The notes under the pieces: generated by a model
What the model was told of the DNA's origin: nothing
Database searches by the model: none
What the model saw: the letters and a program-made list of their open reading frames with translations, nothing else
Part shown: positions 277 to 63,750 of the stretch, piece by piece
Layout: each line of letters opens with the position of its first letter
Numbering within the stretch: position 1 is the first letter of the stretch
Program-made: the position numbers and the translations under genes
NCBI GenBank assembly: GCA_031426335.1
Contig: JANPLC010000111.1
Location: 2,384-66,383, forward strand
DNA: 64,000 bases
Direction of reading: 5' to 3'
Origin: Planctomycetota bacterium
GTDB taxonomy: Bacteria; Planctomycetota; UBA11346

Positions 277-306
277 GACGCGTGAGGTTGTAGGTCAGTT
301 CTCGGG

Positions 307-7109: not shown

Positions 7110-7418
7110 CTATTCGGGTTGTCCCGATTCCTGATCGGACTGGCGGTCCTTCGGTCGTGCGTGCGTGGCGATGACGAACCACACGGCACAAGCACTGAGT
7201 CCGCCGAGCCACACCAGCAACGATCCGGTAGTGCCAAGAAACGCGGCGGCACGATCGAGTGAGCGTTCGCGACGACCGGCCGCGTCATGATCCTTTATCT
7301 CTCCGGCTTCGAGCTCACGTGCCTTGCTGAACAACAGCCAGCCGAACACCAACACCAGGAAGGCGACCAGCAACGGGCGACCGACTGACGAGTCGCGCAG
7401 GTACTTCATCCACGACAT
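7110..7418 (-). CDS. small two-TM membrane protein, distal gene of the symporter operon
   Basis: 102-aa ORF 25 nt downstream of the SSS transporter gene on the same strand, with two hydrophobic helices. Confidence 0.4.
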   Translation of the reverse strand: MSWMKYLRDSSVGRPLLVAFLVLVFGWLLFSKARELEAGEIKDHDAAGRRERSLDRAAAFLGTTGSLLVWLGGLSACAVWFVIATHARPKDRQSDQESGQPE

Positions 7419-7442: not shown

Positions 7443-9359
7443 TCAGGTGGTCGTTGTCGCCGGCTTGCGCGTCATCAACGACACCACGATCAGCACGAGG
7501 AAGCCCAGCGGTACGGTAACAATGGCGGGTTGACTGAACGGCACGATGGCATTGGCCGCGGCGTCGGTGGCAGTGAAGTTGTAGACGTACTGGAGCGCTT
7601 CTTTGCTGCCGAGCACCCAGCCGAGCGACACCACCATGCCAATGAAGATCGCCCAGGTGATGCCCTGTTTGGTGGTGCCCTTCCAGAACAGCAACATTAC
7701 CAACGACGGCAGATTGGCCGACGCCGCGATGTTGAAGGCCCAGCCGACCAGGAAGTTGACGTTCATCTTTTCAAAGACGATGCCGAGCAGAATGGCGATG
7801 ATGCCAACTACCACCGCGGCCAGCTTCGCGACGTGTACTTGGCGTTCGTCACCCAGGTCAATCTTGAAGACGTTGGTCACCAAGTCGTGCGCCACCGCGC
7901 CGCTCGCCGCCATGATCAGCCCGCTGACGGTGCCGAGCACGGTGGTGAAGGCGACGGCGGAAATCACCGCGAACAGCAGCTCATTGAAGCCCTTCGCCAA
8001 CAGCGGCGCCGACATGTTGCTGTTGGTCGGATCAAGCGTGCCGCCGGTCATCGCACCCAGGCCGAGGTACAGCGTCAGTACGTAGAAGAAGCCGATCGCG
8101 GCGATGCCCATGATGGTGCTCTTACGCGCGCTGACTTGATCCTTCACCGTGTAGTAACGAATCAGGATGTGCGGCAGCGACGCGGTGCCCAGGAACAGTG
8201 CCAGCATCAGCGACAGGAAGTCGATCTTCGCCACCGTGCTGTCGCTGCGCAGACCGGCGAAGGTCGGTGATCCGCCGGCGGTCAGGATATCCGCGCCCTT
8301 GGTCGGCGACTGGTAATAAATCGTGGTGCCGTCGATGGTCGCGCTCTTCCACAAGATGATCTCGCTCTCCTGGAACACGCGAAAGAACTCGAACGGGCCG
8401 AGCGGGCCGGTCTCTTCTTTGCCATTCGGGAGTTTGGACACCGTGCCGATGGGATGCAGGTCGTTCGTGGCTGACGACGGCTTGCCGTTTTTCAGCACTA
8501 CGCCGTCAGCGCCCTTGGAAACGGTCTGGGTTTCCGACAGCAGTTCGACTCCTTCGACACCAGCGGGATCCTTGCCGGCCTTACGCCACACCTGCACGGT
8601 GCCATCAGCGGCTTTCACCCGCACGAAGGGTTTGTCTTTCCAGCCGCCGTCCTCCGGCAGCACCGTCACGCCGTCGGCCTTCAGCACCTGCTCGGCGGGT
8701 TTAACCGCGAAACGGTGGGCCTTGGCGTCACCTGGCGTGGTGTCGAAACCACGGAACAGAATCATGATGGTCATCAGCGTGCATAGCCCGACCAGCAGAC
8801 CGCCCTTGATGAACTGCACCCAGGTGGTCGAGACCATGCCGGCAGTGGCGACGATGACGATCACCACGCTGCCAACGGCGGTCACGCCCATCCAGTGGTC
8901 CCAGCCGAGCAGCGGTTTGATCAACGCGCCGGCGCCGACCATCTGCGGGATAAGGTAAAAAATCGACACCACGAGCGTGCTGATCGCCGCCGCTAGTTTG
9001 ATGCCGCGCGAATTGAACTTGTTGTCGAGCGCATCGGCAAAGGTGTAGCGCCCCAGCCGCTTCATCGGTTCGGCGATGACAAACAACGCGACGATCCAAC
9101 CAGCAAGGTAACCGATCGAATAAAGAAATCCGTCGTAGCCATAGAACGCAATCATGCCGCAGATGCCCAGGAACGACGCAGCGGACAGGTAGTCGCCGGC
9201 AAAGGCGATGCCGTTGACCCACCACGGCACGCTGCCGCCGGCCGCGAAGAAGCCTTTCGCTGACTTGGCCTTGGCCCCCATGTAAAAACTGATGCCGACG
9301 ACGATGCCGACGAAGGCCAAAAAAATCGCGAGTGAGAGTGGCGACGAAGTGTAGTTCAT
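7443..9359 (-). CDS. sodium:solute symporter (SSS) family transporter, VC_2705-like subtype, with a ~170-aa extracytoplasmic insertion
   Basis: 638-aa polytopic protein with SSS-family motifs (GGSVPWWVNGIAFAGDYLSAASFLG, SLPHILIRYYT). Its start is 2 nt from the stop of the upstream DUF4212 gene. Confidence 0.85.
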   Translation of the reverse strand: MNYTSSPLSLAIFLAFVGIVVGISFYMGAKAKSAKGFFAAGGSVPWWVNGIAFAGDYLSAASFLGICGMIAFYGYDGFLYSIGYLAGWIVALFVIAEPMKRLGRYTFADALDNKFNSRGIKLAAAISTLVVSIFYLIPQMVGAGALIKPLLGWDHWMGVTAVGSVVIVIVATAGMVSTTWVQFIKGGLLVGLCTLMTIMILFRGFDTTPGDAKAHRFAVKPAEQVLKADGVTVLPEDGGWKDKPFVRVKAADGTVQVWRKAGKDPAGVEGVELLSETQTVSKGADGVVLKNGKPSSATNDLHPIGTVSKLPNGKEETGPLGPFEFFRVFQESEIILWKSATIDGTTIYYQSPTKGADILTAGGSPTFAGLRSDSTVAKIDFLSLMLALFLGTASLPHILIRYYTVKDQVSARKSTIMGIAAIGFFYVLTLYLGLGAMTGGTLDPTNSNMSAPLLAKGFNELLFAVISAVAFTTVLGTVSGLIMAASGAVAHDLVTNVFKIDLGDERQVHVAKLAAVVVGIIAILLGIVFEKMNVNFLVGWAFNIAASANLPSLVMLLFWKGTTKQGITWAIFIGMVVSLGWVLGSKEALQYVYNFTATDAAANAIVPFSQPAIVTVPLGFLVLIVVSLMTRKPATTTT

Positions 9360-9360
9360 C

Positions 9361-9639
9361 TCAAGCCGCCTTCGTCACGTCGGCGCCGGGCTGTTTCGCC
9401 AAGAACAAATAGACGATCGCCAAGATCATCGCCGCCGCGATCAGGCCGAAGCCGTAGAGGATCGCCAAGTTGACGCCGCCAAAAGGCTGCGACTTCATCA
9501 CCGCCGGAGCAAAGGTGCTGAGTCCCATGAAGCCGGCATAGAGCGCGCAGTAGACCACAAACAACATCAGCCCCAGGCGCGTGTTGAACGCGACGAGCTC
9601 GGGATGCTCATCTTCGCGAACGTTTTCGTGGTCATGCAT
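9361..9639 (-). CDS. DUF4212-type small membrane protein (putative solute symporter small subunit)
   Basis: 92 aa with two TM helices. The DUF4212 + SSS transporter pairing is an established conserved gene pair. Confidence 0.7.
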   Translation of the reverse strand: MHDHENVREDEHPELVAFNTRLGLMLFVVYCALYAGFMGLSTFAPAVMKSQPFGGVNLAILYGFGLIAAAMILAIVYLFLAKQPGADVTKAA

Positions 9640-9777
9640 GGGTCGCTCCTCGGCACTGTACCGGGCGGGGTCATAGGCGGACGCCCAACAACGGACAACC
9701 GCCGTCTGCCAGATGCGGTTCCGGCATGTGCGTCATGCGTTCGACTCCCCAGGAATCACGCATACCTGGGGTGGTCT

Positions 9778-11193
9778 TCAGGGTCGGGACAAGGCAGCTG
9801 GAATTTGGATCTCCAGACTTCCACCCCCGTGCGTGAGCGGATCGCTCACCGCCGGCCGGCCGAACGCCACCGACCACGAACGGACCAGGGCCGCGTCGGC
9901 GAAATCTGGCACTGGTGTGCCCGGGTCGATCGACAGGCGGAAACGGTCGTCGGCCAAGCGCTCATAGCGTAGGGCCACCAAGTCGTCGACCGCCGCCAGG
10001 GAGTGCGGGCCAAAGCGCGCCAGCAGCTCGGCCTCGTCCGCTGGCAAGCCGAGACGCGGGGAGTCGGTCACCAGGCGAACCGCCAAGCGCTCGATGCGGT
10101 GGCTGGCAGTGGTTTTCACCGCGGTGCTGGCACACATGAGCAGGTTAGGAAGACTAATGCGGGCGATGACGAACTGCATCCGCTGGTCAAGGGTGGCTGA
10201 GATCGGGTCCAACCGCTCACGCCGCAGCCGAGCCGATGTATGCGCTTGGACCTCGGCGATGGTGGCACAATCCAGCATCCCGGTAGCCCACATCCAAGTT
10301 CCGCCAACGATTTGGAGGGGCGTCCAGGGATCGCCACTGATGCCGGCAGGATCGGACGAGAACGCAGCGGTGCTCCACGACATCGTCAGGCACGTTCGCG
10401 CCCACAGATCGTTGAACACCGCGCGTTCTGTCTCGAAAGCGGCAGCGATCCCGTCGTACGCGGCTGGCACTTCCGCCGCCCAAGCGACTCGCAAGTCATC
10501 CGGAAGACGGCCCTGGAGTGCGATCGTGCGATAAGCCTGATCGCGATGATCTTGGATGCTGATCAGGTTCATGCTGTCGATCAGCGACAGCGGTTGTCGG
10601 AAGCGTCGGACGAGACGATCCAGATCCAGCAATGCCGGGCGTGGGTCTATGGCAATCGCCGCTTCGTGAACCAGCCACTGGGCCAAAGTACGTGAAGCCA
10701 AAAAATCGTAGTTGGCACGTGAAAAGATGGCACTGGACTCCTCCATGGTGCGTTTTTCCGGAGGAGCCAATTCATGGATGAACCCAGCAAATCCGATGCG
10801 AAGCACGTCATTGATAAGTAAATCGCGCGCGGATTGCATGGTGCCGCGCAAATCTTCGATCGGCCGTCGCTGATCCGCTGGCAAGTCCTCATGGCCAGAG
10901 GCGAAACGGTTCCAGCTATTGTATGAGAATTTCGTATCGGGGTAGGTCGGAACGGCGTCGGCCCAGCGGCGCCACTGATCCTGAAGGTCTTTTCCCGGTG
11001 GAGTCAGTGTGGCCAGCAGGTCATCGATAGTGACGGGCTTGCCCGCCGCACGCAGATCCACGGTCATGTCGGCGTACCGTTGTTCACCGCTCAAGCGCAT
11101 GCCCAACGCCACGGCGACGATGATCAACAGCAGGACTACCACCATCAACAGCAGCCAATGCCACCAGCGCATATGAAAGCGTATGACGGACAT
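9778..11193 (-). CDS. membrane-anchored hypothetical protein (N-terminal TM, large soluble domain), partner of the upstream AAA+ ATPase
   Basis: ~471 aa. N-terminal TM WWHWLLLMVVVLLLIIVAVALG. The ATG at 11191-11193 shares one nucleotide with the TGA of the upstream ATPase gene (TGATG), indicating translational coupling. I recognise no family. Confidence 0.55.
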   Translation of the reverse strand: MSVIRFHMRWWHWLLLMVVVLLLIIVAVALGMRLSGEQRYADMTVDLRAAGKPVTIDDLLATLTPPGKDLQDQWRRWADAVPTYPDTKFSYNSWNRFASGHEDLPADQRRPIEDLRGTMQSARDLLINDVLRIGFAGFIHELAPPEKRTMEESSAIFSRANYDFLASRTLAQWLVHEAAIAIDPRPALLDLDRLVRRFRQPLSLIDSMNLISIQDHRDQAYRTIALQGRLPDDLRVAWAAEVPAAYDGIAAAFETERAVFNDLWARTCLTMSWSTAAFSSDPAGISGDPWTPLQIVGGTWMWATGMLDCATIAEVQAHTSARLRRERLDPISATLDQRMQFVIARISLPNLLMCASTAVKTTASHRIERLAVRLVTDSPRLGLPADEAELLARFGPHSLAAVDDLVALRYERLADDRFRLSIDPGTPVPDFADAALVRSWSVAFGRPAVSDPLTHGGGSLEIQIPAALSRP

Positions 11194-12689
11194 CACCCAC
11201 CCTCCGGATTATCGGCAAAGCGGCAGCGCTCACGCGCCCAGGCGCGCAGGGCGTTGATGCGTTCGCGCATCAGCAGGCTGATCGGGGCGCTGTCGTCCAA
11301 GGCTTGCAGGACGTCGTGCGTGGTCATCGGCCGCTTGTTCGCCGCGGCATGCAGGACGCTGGTGACGATGGCGGCCTCGATGTCGGCGCCGGTGCAGCCC
11401 TGCGATGCGCTGGCGAGGGCGTCGAGGTCAAAGCCCGTGATGTCGACCTTGCGCCGGACCAAGTGCAGGCGAGCGATCTCGCGGCGCACCGCCAACGTCG
11501 GCAGATCGACGAAAAATATTTCGTCGAAGCGGCCTTTGCGCAGCAGCTCGGGCGGCAGCGCTTCGATGTTGTTGGCGGTGGCGACCATGAACACTGGCGC
11601 GGCGCGTTCCTGCATCCACGTCAGCAAGCAGCCGAACATGCGCTGCGACAGACCGCCATCAGTCGATTGCGAGGCGGCCGAGGCGAAGGCCTTCTCGATC
11701 TCGTCGACCCACAACACCGCTGGCGCCATGGCCTCGGCTTGTTGCAGCGCCTCACGCAAACGTCGTTCGCTCTCACCGACGTACTGATTGTAAAGACTGC
11801 CGACATCCAGGCGCAACAACGGACGATTCCACGTGTGCGCGATGGTGCGGGCACACAGACTTTTGCCGGAGCCAGGCACGCCGAGCAGCAGGACGCCTCG
11901 CGGTGCATCAAGGCCGGCGCTGGGTGGCGCGTCGAAGGCGGCACGCCGGAGGACCAGCCACTGCTTGAGCTTTTCGGCCCCCGCGATGTCGGCCTGTCCC
12001 AGCGACACGACTTCGAGTAACGAACCACGACCAAGAAACTTGGCGCGCGCGGCACCGAGTCGTTCGACATCGGCCGCGTCAAAACGATCGTCGGCCATCG
12101 CATCGGCAACCAGTCGACGCACTTGGCTACGCGACAGGCCACGCATCGCCCGCACCGCCGCGCGGATGTAGTCTTGCGACAGATCGACGGTGATCGGCTT
12201 GTCCTTCTTCAGCTGTTCGATGGTGGCGCGCAGAATGCCGAAGATCTCTTGATCATCCGGCAGCGCGGGCACGAACGGAACCGCCTCGCGCATGATGATG
12301 TCCGGCAGGTGGAGGTGATGATCGAGCAGCACCACCGTATTGCCGAGCGTGGACGCCCGCGACACCAGTTCGCGCAGGGCGCGCAGCACCAGCTCGTTGC
12401 CCAGGTGCGGGCCAAGATCGAGCAGCAGGAACACCCGATTGGCGCCGGCCTGCCAGCACCAGCGCAGCCCCGCCGCCGGTTGTTCGGTGCCGCTTAGCGC
12501 GCCGTGGTCGGTGTCGAACACGCCTTCATAGATCCCCCGCACATGCGTCCAGGTGGTGACCTGTCGCGCGTTATCGAGCGCCGCACCGACGACCGCCTCG
12601 ACTGAACGATCTTCATCGCTGGTGCTGATGGTAATCAGCGGGTGACGGGCGCGTAAGAGCAGAGCGAAACGTTCGCGATCGGAGGGCAT
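11193..12689 (-). CDS. AAA+ ATPase (classic-clade AAA domain) with a ~250-aa N-terminal domain of unknown function
   Basis: Walker A GVPGSGKS, Walker B VLWVDEIEKA, second region of homology ATANNIEALPPELLRKGRFDEIFF. Preferred start is MPSDRERF (ATG at 12687-12689, minus strand). Confidence 0.8.
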   Translation of the reverse strand: MPSDRERFALLLRARHPLITISTSDEDRSVEAVVGAALDNARQVTTWTHVRGIYEGVFDTDHGALSGTEQPAAGLRWCWQAGANRVFLLLDLGPHLGNELVLRALRELVSRASTLGNTVVLLDHHLHLPDIIMREAVPFVPALPDDQEIFGILRATIEQLKKDKPITVDLSQDYIRAAVRAMRGLSRSQVRRLVADAMADDRFDAADVERLGAARAKFLGRGSLLEVVSLGQADIAGAEKLKQWLVLRRAAFDAPPSAGLDAPRGVLLLGVPGSGKSLCARTIAHTWNRPLLRLDVGSLYNQYVGESERRLREALQQAEAMAPAVLWVDEIEKAFASAASQSTDGGLSQRMFGCLLTWMQERAAPVFMVATANNIEALPPELLRKGRFDEIFFVDLPTLAVRREIARLHLVRRKVDITGFDLDALASASQGCTGADIEAAIVTSVLHAAANKRPMTTHDVLQALDDSAPISLLMRERINALRAWARERCRFADNPEGG

Positions 12690-12774
12690 GACCGACGATC
12701 CCAGATCGCTGGTGATGGGCAAGGTGCGGCCACAGCACTTGTCCGCTCCGCGTCGGTGTCGGCTGGGGTTCTCC

Positions 12775-12836
12775 GTGGCACGGGCGTCCCGCCCGTGGTC
12801 GAGGACGTGCAACCACGGGCGAGACGCCCGTGCCAC
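12775..12836. promoter_or_regulatory. 62-nt near-perfect hairpin / palindromic element in the divergent promoter region
   Basis: GTGGCACGGGCGTC (12775-12788) pairs with GACGCCCGTGCCAC (12823-12836). An inner stem CCCGTGGT (12792-12799) pairs with ACCACGGG (12812-12819). It lies between the ATPase start (12689, minus) and the nucleotidase-like gene start (12929, plus). Confidence 0.4.
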
Positions 12837-12928
12837 GCTGCATGCCAGCATCACCGGGCGATCGAACGTGGTACGCGGAACCACGTTCAGGAGCTTTGCA
12901 CGCCGTGCCGCGGCCAGAGGATGCCCCC

Positions 12929-13891
12929 ATGCCCGCCCCGCACCTGACCATCGCCGTCGCATCTAGCGCGGTCTTCGACCTGGGTGCCGCCGACGCGATC
13001 TTCCGCTCCGAGGGCCGCGAGGCCTACCGCGCCTACCAACGCGAACACGAAGCCGACATCCTCGCCCCAGGCGTGGCCTTCCCTTTCGTCCGTCGACTGC
13101 TGACAGTCAATCGCTCCGACCCGCGCAATCCGCTGGTCGAGGTGGTGCTGATCTCGCGCAACGATCCCGACACCGGCGTGCGCGTGCGCAATTCGCTCGA
13201 CCACCATGGCCTCGGCATCAGCCGCACGGTGTTCACCGGCGGTCGTGCGCCGTGGCCGTACATCGACTCGTTCGAGGCCAGCCTGTTTCTTTCCGGCAAC
13301 CGTGAGGACGTCGCCGAAGCGATCTCCCTCGGACTGCCCGCCGGCATGGTCATGCCCGGCTTGGTCGCCGATGACGGTGATGAGGAACTCCGCCTCGGCT
13401 TCGACTTCGACGGCGTGCTGGCGGACGATGCCGGCGAACGTTTCTACAAGGAACAGGGCCTCGCGCGTTTCCACGCCAACGAACGCGCCAACGCCGGCTC
13501 ACCGCTCTCGCCCGGTCCGCTGCAACGCCTGCTGACGCAAGTCGCCGCGGTGCAGGCCGCCGAACGTGCACGCCAAGCGAAGGACGCCGCCCACAAACCG
13601 CTGATCCGCACCGCCATCATCACTGCCCGCAGCGCCCCGGCTGATCGCCGTGTGATCGCCTCGCTGCGCGAATGGGGCGTCACCGTCGACGAAGCGTTCT
13701 TCATTGGCGACTTGCCGAAAAACAAAGTGCTGAGCGCCTTCCGGCCGCACCTGTTCTTCGATGACAAGCCGGAAAACGCTCGTCTGGCGTCCGAGACCGC
13801 GCCGTCGGTGCATGTGCCGTTTGGGGTGACGAATGATCGGATGGGTCCGGAGGTCCGGAGGTCCGGAAGTCCGGAAGTCGGGCAATCCTGA
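12929..13891 (+). CDS. HAD-superfamily hydrolase, 5'-nucleotidase-like (PF06189-like)
   Basis: DxD motif FDFDGVLADD and C-terminal FFDDKPEN. Preferred start is MPAPHLTIAV at 12929. The 3' end runs into a tandem octamer repeat. Confidence 0.55.
   Translation: MPAPHLTIAVASSAVFDLGAADAIFRSEGREAYRAYQREHEADILAPGVAFPFVRRLLTVNRSDPRNPLVEVVLISRNDPDTGVRVRNSLDHHGLGISRTVFTGGRAPWPYIDSFEASLFLSGNREDVAEAISLGLPAGMVMPGLVADDGDEELRLGFDFDGVLADDAGERFYKEQGLARFHANERANAGSPLSPGPLQRLLTQVAAVQAAERARQAKDAAHKPLIRTAIITARSAPADRRVIASLREWGVTVDEAFFIGDLPKNKVLSAFRPHLFFDDKPENARLASETAPSVHVPFGVTNDRMGPEVRRSGSPEVGQS
13845..13886. repeat. tandem 8-mer repeat (GGTCCGGA/AGTCCGGA x5)
   Basis: ggtccggaggtccggaggtccggaagtccggaagtcgggc. It is followed at 13900-13928 by three copies of cttggacgc-like units. 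A related motif cccggaggtccggagccgga occurs at 18874-18893. Confidence 0.5.
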
Positions 13892-63486: not shown

Positions 63487-63502
63487 TTGCGGATCACCGT
63501 GG

Positions 63503-63637
63503 GGCGACTCGGTAACCGCAGAGACGCAGAGCACCGCAGAGGGCCGCAGAGCGCAGAAAACGGGTGGATAAAGCCGTCGAGTTTCGTCTCTGCGGCCCTC
63601 CTCTCACCTCTGCGTCTCTGCGGTTAACGAGTCGCTC
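63503..63637 (+). terminator. very long (~50-bp stem) imperfect hairpin immediately after the giant gene, probable operon terminator/structured element
   Basis: GGGCGACTCGGTAACCGCAGAGACGCAGAG...GGGCCGCAGAG (63503-63550) pairs with CTCTGCGGCCC...CTCTGCGTCTCTGCGGTTAACGAGTCGCTCC (63587-63637), with a 36-nt loop. It is followed by GATTTTGG. Confidence 0.45.
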
Positions 63638-63750
63638 CACGGCGATTTTGGTCAGGGGGTTCACTCTCCCCCGGCGTCTCGCCTGACCTCCCAGTAGCCC
63701 GCCGGGAACTCCGCCACACCATCCGCGCTTCACCCGTTGGGAAGTGCGCC

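Follow-up and report, generated by a model that had tools for sequence, protein, structure and literature searches.

A predicted Ycf46-type AAA+ ATPase and a lineage-restricted, replaceable membrane-protein gene in a Planctomycetota genome

We analysed a gene pair that lies within a 64,000-nucleotide stretch of Planctomycetota DNA (the window) and encodes an AAA+ ATPase and a membrane-anchored partner. With modest confidence, we favour the reading that the locus combines a widespread Ycf46-type ATPase with a lineage-restricted, replaceable accessory membrane gene, and that it is not a dedicated two-component system. The ATPase would be broadly conserved and normally encoded by a stand-alone gene. 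The partner would be an accessory gene in the slot between the ATPase gene and the DUF485-SSF genes, a position that it would hold in one lineage only.

The whole pair is on the minus strand, and the partner gene is downstream of the ATPase gene (Table 1). At the junction, GGGTGATGTCC, the TGA stop (11195-11193) and the ATG start (11193-11191) have one base in common. An earlier sequence-only reading had described this 1-nt TGATG overlap as translational coupling, and we accept that description. If the partner instead began at the GTG at 11196, the overlap would be 4 nt. The same reading had noted an adjoining transporter operon, which we found to comprise DUF485 and SSF symporter genes on the same strand, 3' of the partner. 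In each of the related loci, either the partner or the AAA gene lies right before the DUF485 gene. The 5'-nucleotidase on the other side is 90 to 94% identical in the related loci L004, L087, and L088. The neighbourhood is metabolic (5'-nucleotidase, symporter, malic enzyme), and phage genes are absent from it. The GC content is 58 to 66% over the partner versus 59 to 68% in the surroundings; this is not distinctive, and a compositional anomaly that would point to recent foreign origin was rejected.

Table 1. Features of the locus, with positions counted in the window
Feature	Residues	Position	Strand	Evidence or remark
Sodium:solute symporter (SSF, ActP-like) gene		7443..9359	-	Pfam SSF, 4e-71
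DUF485 (YjcH-like) gene		9361..9639	-	Pfam DUF485, 1e-13; 138 nt 3' of partner
Partner gene	471 aa	9778..11193	-	Undescribed single-pass membrane protein family (putative)
Partner soluble domain, all-alpha with small C-terminal beta sheet	33-471	9781..11097	-	AF2 model
Partner N-terminal TM anchor	about 10-32	11098..11166	-	Hydropathy; AF2 helix at 10-49
TGATG stop/start overlap, ATPase/partner		11191..11195	-	Direct sequence reading
AAA+ ATPase gene	498 aa	11193..12689	-	Pfam AAA 5e-31 and AAA_lid_3
Classical AAA module, predicted active		11505..11924	-	Motif scan
Walker B VLWVDE	325-330	11700-11717	-	Motif scan
Walker A GVPGSGKS	270-277	11859-11882	-	Motif scan
Pore loop YVG	303-305		-	Motif scan
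Arg fingers	R384 and R387		-	Motif scan
ATPase N-terminal domain, degenerate D1-like AAA (predicted)	1-225	12015..12689	-	AF2 model, Foldseek
CTTGCCC heptamer, 28-34 nt before AAA ATG		12717..12723	-	Alignments of four related loci
Large hairpin, two copies of palindromic unit CACGGGCG-N3-CGCCCGTG		12762..12849	.	REP-like dispersed element
5'-Nucleotidase gene, divergent		12926..13891	+	Pfam PF06189, 1e-112; synteny anchor

The ATPase reading frame stood up to analysis, but its length is 498 residues, since the 499 reported earlier included the stop codon. The longest ATPase ORF extends to 12962. We prefer the ATG at 12689 because close homologues are 498 aa long and because upstream conservation begins just before that ATG. 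The classic AAA domain that had been recognised from the sequence is borne out by a Pfam AAA match at residues 266 to 395 (5e-31). Residues of the Walker A and B motifs, the pore loop, and the Arg fingers are invariant in 55 homologues, and matches among PDB sequences are to D1 or D2 of Cdc48/p97 (2e-55). By inference, the ATPase would resemble Cdc48 in working as a hexamer that threads its substrates and so unfolds or remodels them.

Full-length homologues of the ATPase number at least 8000 and are about 495 aa long. Alignments across residues ~3 to 493 have 36 to 50% identity in Planctomycetota, Xanthomonadales, Cyanobacteria, and Acidobacteria, and the cyanobacterial homologues are 37 to 40% identical over the full length. 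Some homologues carry the name "SpoVK/Ycf46/Vps4 family," which JGI applies to close homologues of the window ATPase. Named homologues also point to Planctomycetota as the probable lineage. Corndog-like mycobacteriophages also encode full-length relatives, and the phrog_8638 profile covers the protein from residue 6 to residue 495 (E = 2.7e-113). The gene is conserved and core-like, with a dN/dS of 0.10, and stands alone in hundreds of genomes. With its 498 aa, single C-terminal classical AAA module, and N-terminal half that can be aligned across the family, it has the features of a Ycf46-type protein. The ATPase is thus assigned by homology to the Ycf46-type AAA+ proteins, a group spread over many phyla and some phages, with the link to the experimentally studied Ycf46 of Synechocystis and S. 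elongatus made through source annotations and cyanobacterial MAG matches only.

The N-terminal ~250 aa had been left unassigned by the sequence-only reading, but this region is not novel. In the AF2 model of the ATPase (pLDDT 88), the N-domain has a beta-alpha-beta core and a helical lid. The whole model aligned with the D1-D2 tandems of p97, Cdc48, NVL, and Rix7 over 540 to 580 columns (TMq up to 0.65), and Foldseek E values against type II AAA+ tandems were 1e-18 to 1e-20. A motif scan found no GxxxxGK[ST] motif in residues 1 to 250. The model thus identifies the N-domain as a degenerate D1-like AAA domain that lacks Walker A and is predicted to be inactive. A word-based search for N-domain homologues gave four matches and missed known orthologues, and we base no conclusion on it.

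We compared the ATPase with known systems. The Ycf46-type proteins (COG0464, "SpoVK/Ycf46/Vps4 family"; Synpcc7942_0417) are similar in length (~495 aa), in their non-catalytic N-half, and in their classical AAA C-half. However, cyanobacterial Ycf46 has been described as KaiC-interacting, stress-induced, and encoded in a three-gene operon, and we see nothing that ties the window gene to those roles. The D1-D2 tandem of p97/VCP, Cdc48, NVL/Rix7, and AFG2 superposes on the window ATPase and has the Walker motifs, pore loop, and second region of homology in common with it. However, those type II proteins are ~800 aa long as opposed to 498 aa, and the window ATPase lacks their N-terminal substrate/adaptor domain and has lost the D1-like P-loop. 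A type II protein has two nucleotide-binding AAA modules and an adaptor domain; the window ATPase has the tandem fold, but its D1 is without Walker A. The "AAA-ATPase" of PHROG 8638, Corndog gp96, is homologous over the full length (31% identity over 99% of the protein), but it is a phage gene with no known function, whereas the window gene is chromosomal and has metabolic neighbours. The likeness to IetA of the IetAS system is confined to the AAA core (PADLOC IetA, 3e-22, residues 256 to 466); the N-domain is outside the match, and an IetS protease partner is lacking beside the window ATPase. IetAS was rejected, with an NCBIfam IteA score of 79.9 bits against a cut-off of 510 and a partner that is all-alpha, TM-anchored, and without a PADLOC or Pfam match. 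An FtsH-type membrane AAA protease was also rejected, because the similarity is limited to the AAA core (TIGR01241 scores 103, with the cut-off at 600) and Peptidase_M41 gave no match. For a CBASS-type TRIP13/HORMA system, we found a weak TRIP13 match to the AAA core (5e-12) and no HORMA or CD-NTase among the neighbours, and this candidate was dropped too.

The partner was correctly described before as a 471-aa protein with one N-terminal TM helix and a large soluble domain, as the ORF, hydropathy, and the AF2 model (pLDDT 78, pTM 0.78) all agree. It is a real gene, because it is under purifying constraint (dN/dS of 0.19 against the L003 orthologue). The earlier failure to recognise a family for it also held. 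Searches with the single sequence, with 9-member and 80-member profiles, and with a per-member Pfam scan gave no match in Pfam, NCBIfam, PADLOC, PHROGs, or PDB sequences, and the fold had no match in the PDB or BFVD. Homologues in phages or plasmids were not found. However distant from known families, the protein has relatives of its own. A profile search returned 274 cluster representatives at E ≤ 1e-3 (clusters at 50% identity), mostly of 440 to 490 aa, and 125 of 134 family members have a TM helix inside the first 80 residues. Conservation analysis gave R217, D218, W238, R257, R366, R369, P384, Y410, and R419 as signature residues. The window partner carries every one of them and matches the 134-member family profile at 1e-137. 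These comparisons place the partner in what appears to be an undescribed family of single-pass membrane proteins.

Ahead of the TM helix is a basic tail of ~9 to 10 aa with an RWWHW motif. R9, W10, W11, H12, and W13 do not vary within the close set, and ~55% of the wider family has R and WW. In the partner, a basic tail of ~10 residues would lie in the cytoplasm, followed by a single TM helix and an all-alpha domain of ~430 aa. That domain most likely faces the periplasm, because relatives fused to sigma factors have one predicted TM helix. The mild net-charge bias around the TM helix (+2.2 on the N side versus +1.05 on the C side) agrees with this topology; plain K+R counts are ambiguous.

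Four relatives of the partner are fusions. P0198, P0250, and P0256 are ECF sigma factors in which sigma2-sigma4 is followed by one TM helix and the partner domain, the layout of membrane-tethered sigma regulation, as in ECF sigma factors with membrane-spanning C-terminal extensions. P0272 is a fusion of a Ser/Thr kinase (Pkinase), RDD, and the partner domain. ECF sigma factors are regulated mainly through transmembrane anti-sigma factors, and C-terminal extensions with a regulatory function have been described as well (PMC7826278). Single-pass anti-sigma factors have a cytoplasmic anti-sigma domain of ~80 aa before the TM helix, whereas the partner has ~9 residues there. Therefore, the partner does not have an anti-sigma domain. 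Identity as a class I anti-sigma factor was rejected on this short tail and the absence of a zf-HC2 or RskA match. Because relatives carry the domain in membrane-tethered ECF sigma factors and a Ser/Thr kinase, a role in periplasmic sensing or protein binding would be the most likely one. The fusions, as the sole basis, suggest that the partner domain is an extracytoplasmic sensor-like module, one that characterised sensor domains do not match by fold or sequence.

The sequence-only reading had presented the pair as an instance of a recurring module, an AAA ATPase plus a membrane-tethered partner, with stress-response or anti-phage roles. We found that the pair is not kept as neighbours in other genomes. 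Two HMM searches over six-frame ORFs in at least 80 loci found no partner-family gene within 6 kb on either side of the ATPase gene in any of 80 other genomes with this ATPase. Conversely, six partner-family contexts outside the clade were inspected, and five distinct contexts lack an AAA gene; elsewhere, partner-family genes stand alone in settings of three kinds: between ThiG and rpsO-pnp, beside a DndB-like gene, and behind a UPF0114 gene. The pairing is restricted to one narrow clade. Non-conservation as neighbours had been named in advance as the result that would refute the functional framing; therefore, this framing is unsupported.

Within the clade, because of the partner's position, the partner would be co-transcribed and translationally coupled with the ATPase. 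A stop/start overlap also persists in L003, where it is 1 nt, and in L004, where it is 4 nt; their partners are 82% and 45% identical to that of the window. L006 retains the AAA-then-partner order. The survival of the overlap with two such deeply diverged alleles of the partner, and of the adjacency in L006, may mean that co-expression is selected for. This observation bears on a fairly unlikely alternative, a clade-specific module in which a cytoplasmic AAA+ hexamer grips the partner tail and extracts, unfolds, or turns over the membrane protein. Such a module would resemble the AAA-driven regulated turnover of membrane-tethered signalling proteins. The intact threading pore loop of the ATPase and the invariance of R-W-W-H-W in the close set are consistent with it, and this strikingly conserved cytoplasmic tail could be a recognition element. 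However, the tail is only ~9 residues long, and the RWWHW motif is kept equally well in family members that stand alone, with no ATPase gene next to them. The gene 3' of the ATPase varies among loci, and the sole recurring one encodes a PEGA lipoprotein (7 of 73 loci, all seven in Planctomycetota); this is a different envelope protein behind the same ATPase, as the module would allow. On the other hand, L087 and L088, which are syntenic and have ATPases 89% and 87% identical to that of the window, have lost the partner, and no compensating change is visible. L094 keeps the partner, but no AAA coding sequence occupies the 200 nt 5' of it. In size, the ATPase family exceeds the partner family at least 30-fold. 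We regard as quite unlikely the extended version, in which the slot holds a recombining gene of variable presence for a membrane-anchored protein with a new extracytoplasmic sensor-type domain, and the ATPase extracts this protein or turns it over through RWWHW, as a so far unrecognised AAA+-controlled envelope signalling module. If it were true, the PEGA-lipoprotein neighbour in other Planctomycetota would be a parallel, non-homologous case.

The favoured reading, a replaceable accessory gene, draws on how the slot varies among close relatives. The partner is 82%, 60%, or 45% identical, or missing, while the flanks are 76 to 97% identical. The AAA gene has a dS of ~0.67 against every relative, whereas the partner has 0.54 (L003), 1.33 (L094), or 1.67 (L004), and partner synonymous divergence reaches 2.5-fold above that of the flanks. 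In L087 and L088, the AAA gene is followed directly by DUF485. Neither tblastn nor blastn found partner remnants in these two loci, and the gaps hold unrelated palindromic repeats. The partner slot behaves like a cassette, a replaceable and dispensable gene within conserved synteny. The partner would have been lost, or swapped for a deeply divergent allele, with the flanking genes left unchanged.

The slot also borders the transporter genes, and the partner might instead be an accessory of the DUF485-SSF (YjcH/ActP-like) transporter, for example a periplasmic solute modulator or sensor, and not of the ATPase. DUF485-SSF directly follows the partner in all partner-bearing members of the clade (the window, L003, L004, L005, and L094), even in L094, whose partner has no ATPase gene immediately 5' of it. 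However, DUF485-SSF is intact at 76 to 92% identity in L087 and L088, which have no partner, and distant partner-family members are not beside SSF genes. Most of the 138- to 180-nt spacer between the partner and DUF485 recurs in four relatives, whether or not they have the partner, and the window and L003 have only part of it in common; this suggests a separate transcription unit. We consider this alternative distinctly improbable.

Defence genes are often polymorphic for presence and have deeply diverged alleles within a slot that is itself conserved. The partner shows this pattern, full-length homologues of the ATPase are encoded by phages, and PADLOC gives weak matches to IetA and TRIP13, all of which would fit a two-gene anti-phage system of an AAA+ motor and a membrane effector. 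However, the PADLOC and NCBIfam matches extend no further than the generic AAA core, and their scores fall far short of the family cut-offs (IteA, 79.9 versus 510). The DefenseFinder/PADLOC-style scan that the sequence-only reading had proposed gave, with PADLOC, nothing for the partner and no defence signature, and the locus lacks an IetS-like protease and a HORMA partner. The ATPase is core-like by its dN/dS and solitary occurrence, the neighbours are metabolic, the partner has no phage or plasmid homologue, and partner-family members elsewhere sit among housekeeping genes. We consider a defence system very improbable.

The palindrome ahead of the pair had been called a promoter hairpin. A large palindrome is indeed present upstream, but a promoter or regulatory role is not supported. 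Its arms (12762-12799 and 12812-12849) have a near-perfect 23-nt core per side and a 12-nt spacer, and it folds at -78 kcal/mol (z = -9.6). It is 73 to 160 nt 5' of the AAA ATG, within the intergenic region from which the AAA and 5'-nucleotidase genes diverge, and it has no Rfam match (best E, 0.91). The hairpin is present in the window and L087 and absent in L004 and L088, and its palindromic unit recurs in L088 at another site. It is a dispersed REP-like palindromic element unrelated to the pair, and a conserved regulatory element was ruled out on this distribution. In the upstream region, sigma-70 promoter and terminator signals were not above those of shuffles. The CTTGCCC heptamer is the only upstream block kept in all four related loci.

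These results strike a candidate defence or stress module off the list and do not overturn current understanding. The D1-like N-domain would make the Ycf46 family, which is poorly understood, a group of pseudo-type-II AAA+ proteins. The partner defines an unannotated family of 274 clusters that has neither a Pfam model nor a fold match in the PDB or BFVD, and its fusions to sigma factors and a Ser/Thr kinase are a testable hint of an extracytoplasmic signal-input domain. The locus itself illustrates cleanly how a gene cassette can be replaceable while the synteny around it is otherwise conserved.

The sequence-only reading had described a AAA+ ATPase gene that overlaps the gene of a membrane-anchored partner behind a hairpin, and this arrangement is correct. 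Both ORFs are present, they meet at GGG-TGA-TG, where the sequence reads with one base common to stop and start, the partner has a single hydrophobic segment at about residues 10 to 32, and the hairpin folds. The longest possible ORF in the ATPase frame begins at 12962 (-). We place the start at the ATG at 12689, because close homologues are 498 aa long and, in a comparison of four related loci, conservation upstream begins only about 35 nt before this ATG. The AF2 model of the partner has a long N-terminal helix. Its dN/dS of 0.19 against the orthologue in the related locus L003 reveals purifying selection. Therefore, the partner is a real gene rather than an artefact of high GC.

Coordinates of the features discussed (window positions unless stated)
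Feature	Position	Strand	Detail
ATPase ORF	12689..11193	-	498 aa
Walker A, GVPGSGKS	ATPase residues 270-277		motif scan
YVG pore loop	ATPase residues 303-305		motif scan
Walker B, VLWVDE	ATPase residues 325-330		motif scan
R384/R387	ATPase second module		motif scan
Partner ORF	11193..9778	-	471 aa
Hairpin arms	12762-12799 and 12812-12849
Spacer upstream of DUF485	9640-9777
ORF directly after SSF	7110-7418	-	102 aa
Second large imperfect palindrome	63493-63646		59-nt arms, 85% complementary
PEGA lipoprotein in L008, L014, L016, L021, L024, L028, L042	~7500-8000 in 13-kb loci

Pfam assigned a classical AAA domain to ATPase residues 266 to 395, plus the lid. NCBIfam and PDB searches recovered nothing beyond the usual relatives of the AAA core (PAN, Cdc48, FtsH), all far under family cut-offs. 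The PHROG family phrog_8638 matches the entire protein, N-terminal half included (2.7e-113). Full-length homologues, each about 495 aa long, number at least 8000, several with the JGI name "SpoVK/Ycf46/Vps4 family AAA+-type ATPase." A scan of species-representative genomes gave 581 relatives; the best 80 of these align over the full length at 36 to 50% identity and come from Planctomycetota, Xanthomonadales, Cyanobacteria, Acidobacteriota, Omnitrophota, and others. Full-length homologues with 31% identity occur in Corndog-like mycobacteriophages. The D1-D2 tandems of p97, Cdc48, NVL, Rix7, and AFG2 superpose on the AF2 model (pLDDT 88) over 540 to 580 columns, and the N-domain shares with AAA modules a beta-alpha-beta core and a helical lid but lacks the P-loop. 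Accordingly, the N-terminal region of about 250 aa, left unassigned by the sequence-only reading, is a degenerate D1-like AAA domain. The Walker motifs, pore loop, and both arginines of the second module are invariant in 55 homologues, and we infer that the protein is a threading ATPase that works as a hexamer. Little has been published on Ycf46; a preprint from 2025 describes Ycf46 of S. elongatus as a AAA ATPase that interacts with KaiC and is encoded in a stress-induced operon of three genes.

In the clade, the gene order is a divergent 5'-nucleotidase (nt5), the AAA gene, the partner where present, DUF485, and the symporter SSF, with malic enzyme further on. Overlap or adjacency of ATPase and partner is kept in L003, L004, and L006, the loci with both genes on a contig spanning both.

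Synteny in related loci (% identity to the window; "not covered," contig ends short of the gene)
Locus	nt5	AAA	Partner	DUF485	SSF	Malic enzyme
L003	not covered	87	82	70	76	97
L004	94	90	45	76	92 (first 76 aa)	not covered
L005	not covered	not covered	45	78	86	97
L006	not covered	90 (C-terminal 166 aa)	49 (N-terminal 57 aa)	not covered	not covered	not covered
L094	not covered	none in 200 nt upstream	60	78	91 (first 57 aa)	not covered
L087	90	89	absent	79	86	96
L088	94	87	absent	79	88	97

The partner position is a gap of 418 nt in L087 and 287 nt in L088. We found no partner remnant in either gap, and unrelated palindromic repeats fill both. ATPase synonymous divergence from the window is about 0.67 (0.66 to 0.68) for each of L003, L004, L087, and L088, whereas that of the partner is 0.54 (L003), 1.33 (L094), and 1.67 (L004). 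It follows that the divergent partner alleles are older than the flanking genes, which indicates cassette-like replacement by recombination and not mere fast protein evolution. An anti-phage defence role, for which the polymorphism pattern is the sole point in favour, is highly improbable. The partner might instead serve the DUF485-SSF transporter, since it always directly precedes these genes in the clade, L094 included, but they persist unchanged where it is absent, and we consider this role improbable.

The near-equal ATPase values form a star-like pattern, which suggests that the sampled lineages may have split at about one time. In L094 (L094:1-210), the 200 nt preceding the partner and DUF485-SSF are not ATPase coding. 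This stretch has a 29-nt inverted repeat, and the heptamer CTTGCCC lies about 40 nt before the partner start codon; in other loci, CTTGCCC precedes the ATPase ATG. Either a deletion of the ATPase in L094 or an insertion that displaced it may explain this arrangement. The 102-aa ORF, 89% identical in L087, gave no hit in Pfam; it probably encodes a small conserved membrane protein that belongs to the transporter cluster.

The hairpin folds at -78 kcal/mol (z = -9.6), and its core had no match in 100 shuffles. Each arm is itself palindromic, CACGGGCG-N3-CGCCCGTG. The element is near-identical in L087, which lacks the partner, and absent from L004, which has it, and from L088. Therefore, its presence is independent of the partner. 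In L088 this unit recurs elsewhere with an identical flank, and other large palindromes lie in intergenic regions of related loci. Searches for an Rfam family, a sigma-70 promoter, and a terminator signal were negative. A dedicated promoter structure, as first proposed, was rejected given this patchy presence and dispersed unit; the hairpin is best read as a dispersed REP-like element. The sole universally conserved upstream block is CTTGCCC, 28 to 34 nt before the ATPase ATG.

The second window palindrome consists of CCGCAGAG-like repeats, and one of CCACAGAGG type that resembles it occupies the L088 AAA-DUF485 gap. The DUF485 upstream spacer is largely one sequence in L004, L005, L087, and L088, with or without the partner; those of the window and L003 have only a part in common with the others (GGCAGAC..GGCGGTTGTCC). 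It has no Rfam match and could supply DUF485-SSF with a promoter or leader of their own.

Outside the clade, the pair is not conserved. An ATPase 76% identical to that of the window sits in another gene context without the partner. Profiles built from 9 and 134 members found no partner-family gene within 6 kb on either side of the ATPase, on both strands, in any of 80 genome loci, and the gene downstream of the ATPase is variable. Partner-family genes stand alone in the contexts inspected: between ThiG and rpsO-pnp, where a Fic gene is sometimes also present; adjoining a DndB-like gene; preceded by a UPF0114 gene and followed by a 2016-aa protein; and, in the case of a sigma fusion, next to sugar-nucleotide genes. 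Together with the partner-less L087 and L088, these results do not support the conserved two-gene system that had been proposed. A pair not kept as neighbours in other genomes is the outcome that the sequence-only reading had itself named as refuting it. The surviving support is weaker: the overlap or adjacency that clade members show on contigs spanning the two genes.

Of 73 loci in which an ORF could be called downstream of an ATPase homologue, 7 have a PEGA lipoprotein directly after the AAA gene, and all 7 are from Planctomycetota (Pirellulales, Sedimentisphaerales, or Phycisphaerales/Phycisphaerae). The lipoprotein is conserved, with 133 to 165 aa, a ..SGCVER.. lipobox, and a Pfam PEGA match (3e-11 to 7e-13). 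This gives the ATPase family a second envelope neighbour, one non-homologous to the partner.

A word-indexed search turned up just 9 partner homologues; a profile search run exhaustively yielded 274 cluster representatives at E<=1e-3, of which 97 reach E<=1e-30, and almost all have 440 to 490 aa. Among typical-length members, 125 of 134 have a TM segment inside the first 80 residues, preceded by a tail of 12 residues on average. The family-wide signature is R217, D218, W238, R257, R366, R369, P384, Y410, and R419. Searches with the single sequence, with profiles, and with 80 members one by one gave no match in Pfam, NCBIfam, PADLOC, PHROG, or PDB sequences. A module particular to this clade, with the ATPase acting on the RWWHW tail of the partner, would fit the retained coupling and intact pore loop, but the closest relatives have lost the partner and lone family members have this tail equally, so we regard it as unlikely.

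Domain fusion is the most informative lead on the partner. Three relatives of about 720 aa (P0198, P0250, and P0256) are ECF sigma fusions, in which Sigma70_r2 and r4 (TIGR02937) are followed by one predicted TM helix and a C-terminal partner domain. A sigma factor is necessarily cytoplasmic. With one intervening helix, the predicted topology therefore puts the partner domain outside the cytoplasm. Net charge flanking the TM segment is +2.2 on the N side versus +1.05 on the C side, and higher on the N side in 82 members and lower in 28, which is mildly consistent with this placement. P0272 (1375 aa) joins a Ser/Thr kinase and an RDD membrane domain to the partner domain.

On balance, we lean toward the ATPase being a stand-alone Ycf46-type unfoldase, with the partner as an accessory, exchangeable membrane protein that has a periplasmic domain and would be co-expressed with it only through position. 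The ATPase adds a member to a family that is known yet poorly understood, and its N-domain is now explained. The partner family is undescribed and has an informative fusion pattern. Its domain may be a periplasmic sensing or interaction module, and the fusion relatives appear to be one-component-like signalling proteins that are tethered to the membrane and carry an undescribed sensor-type domain.
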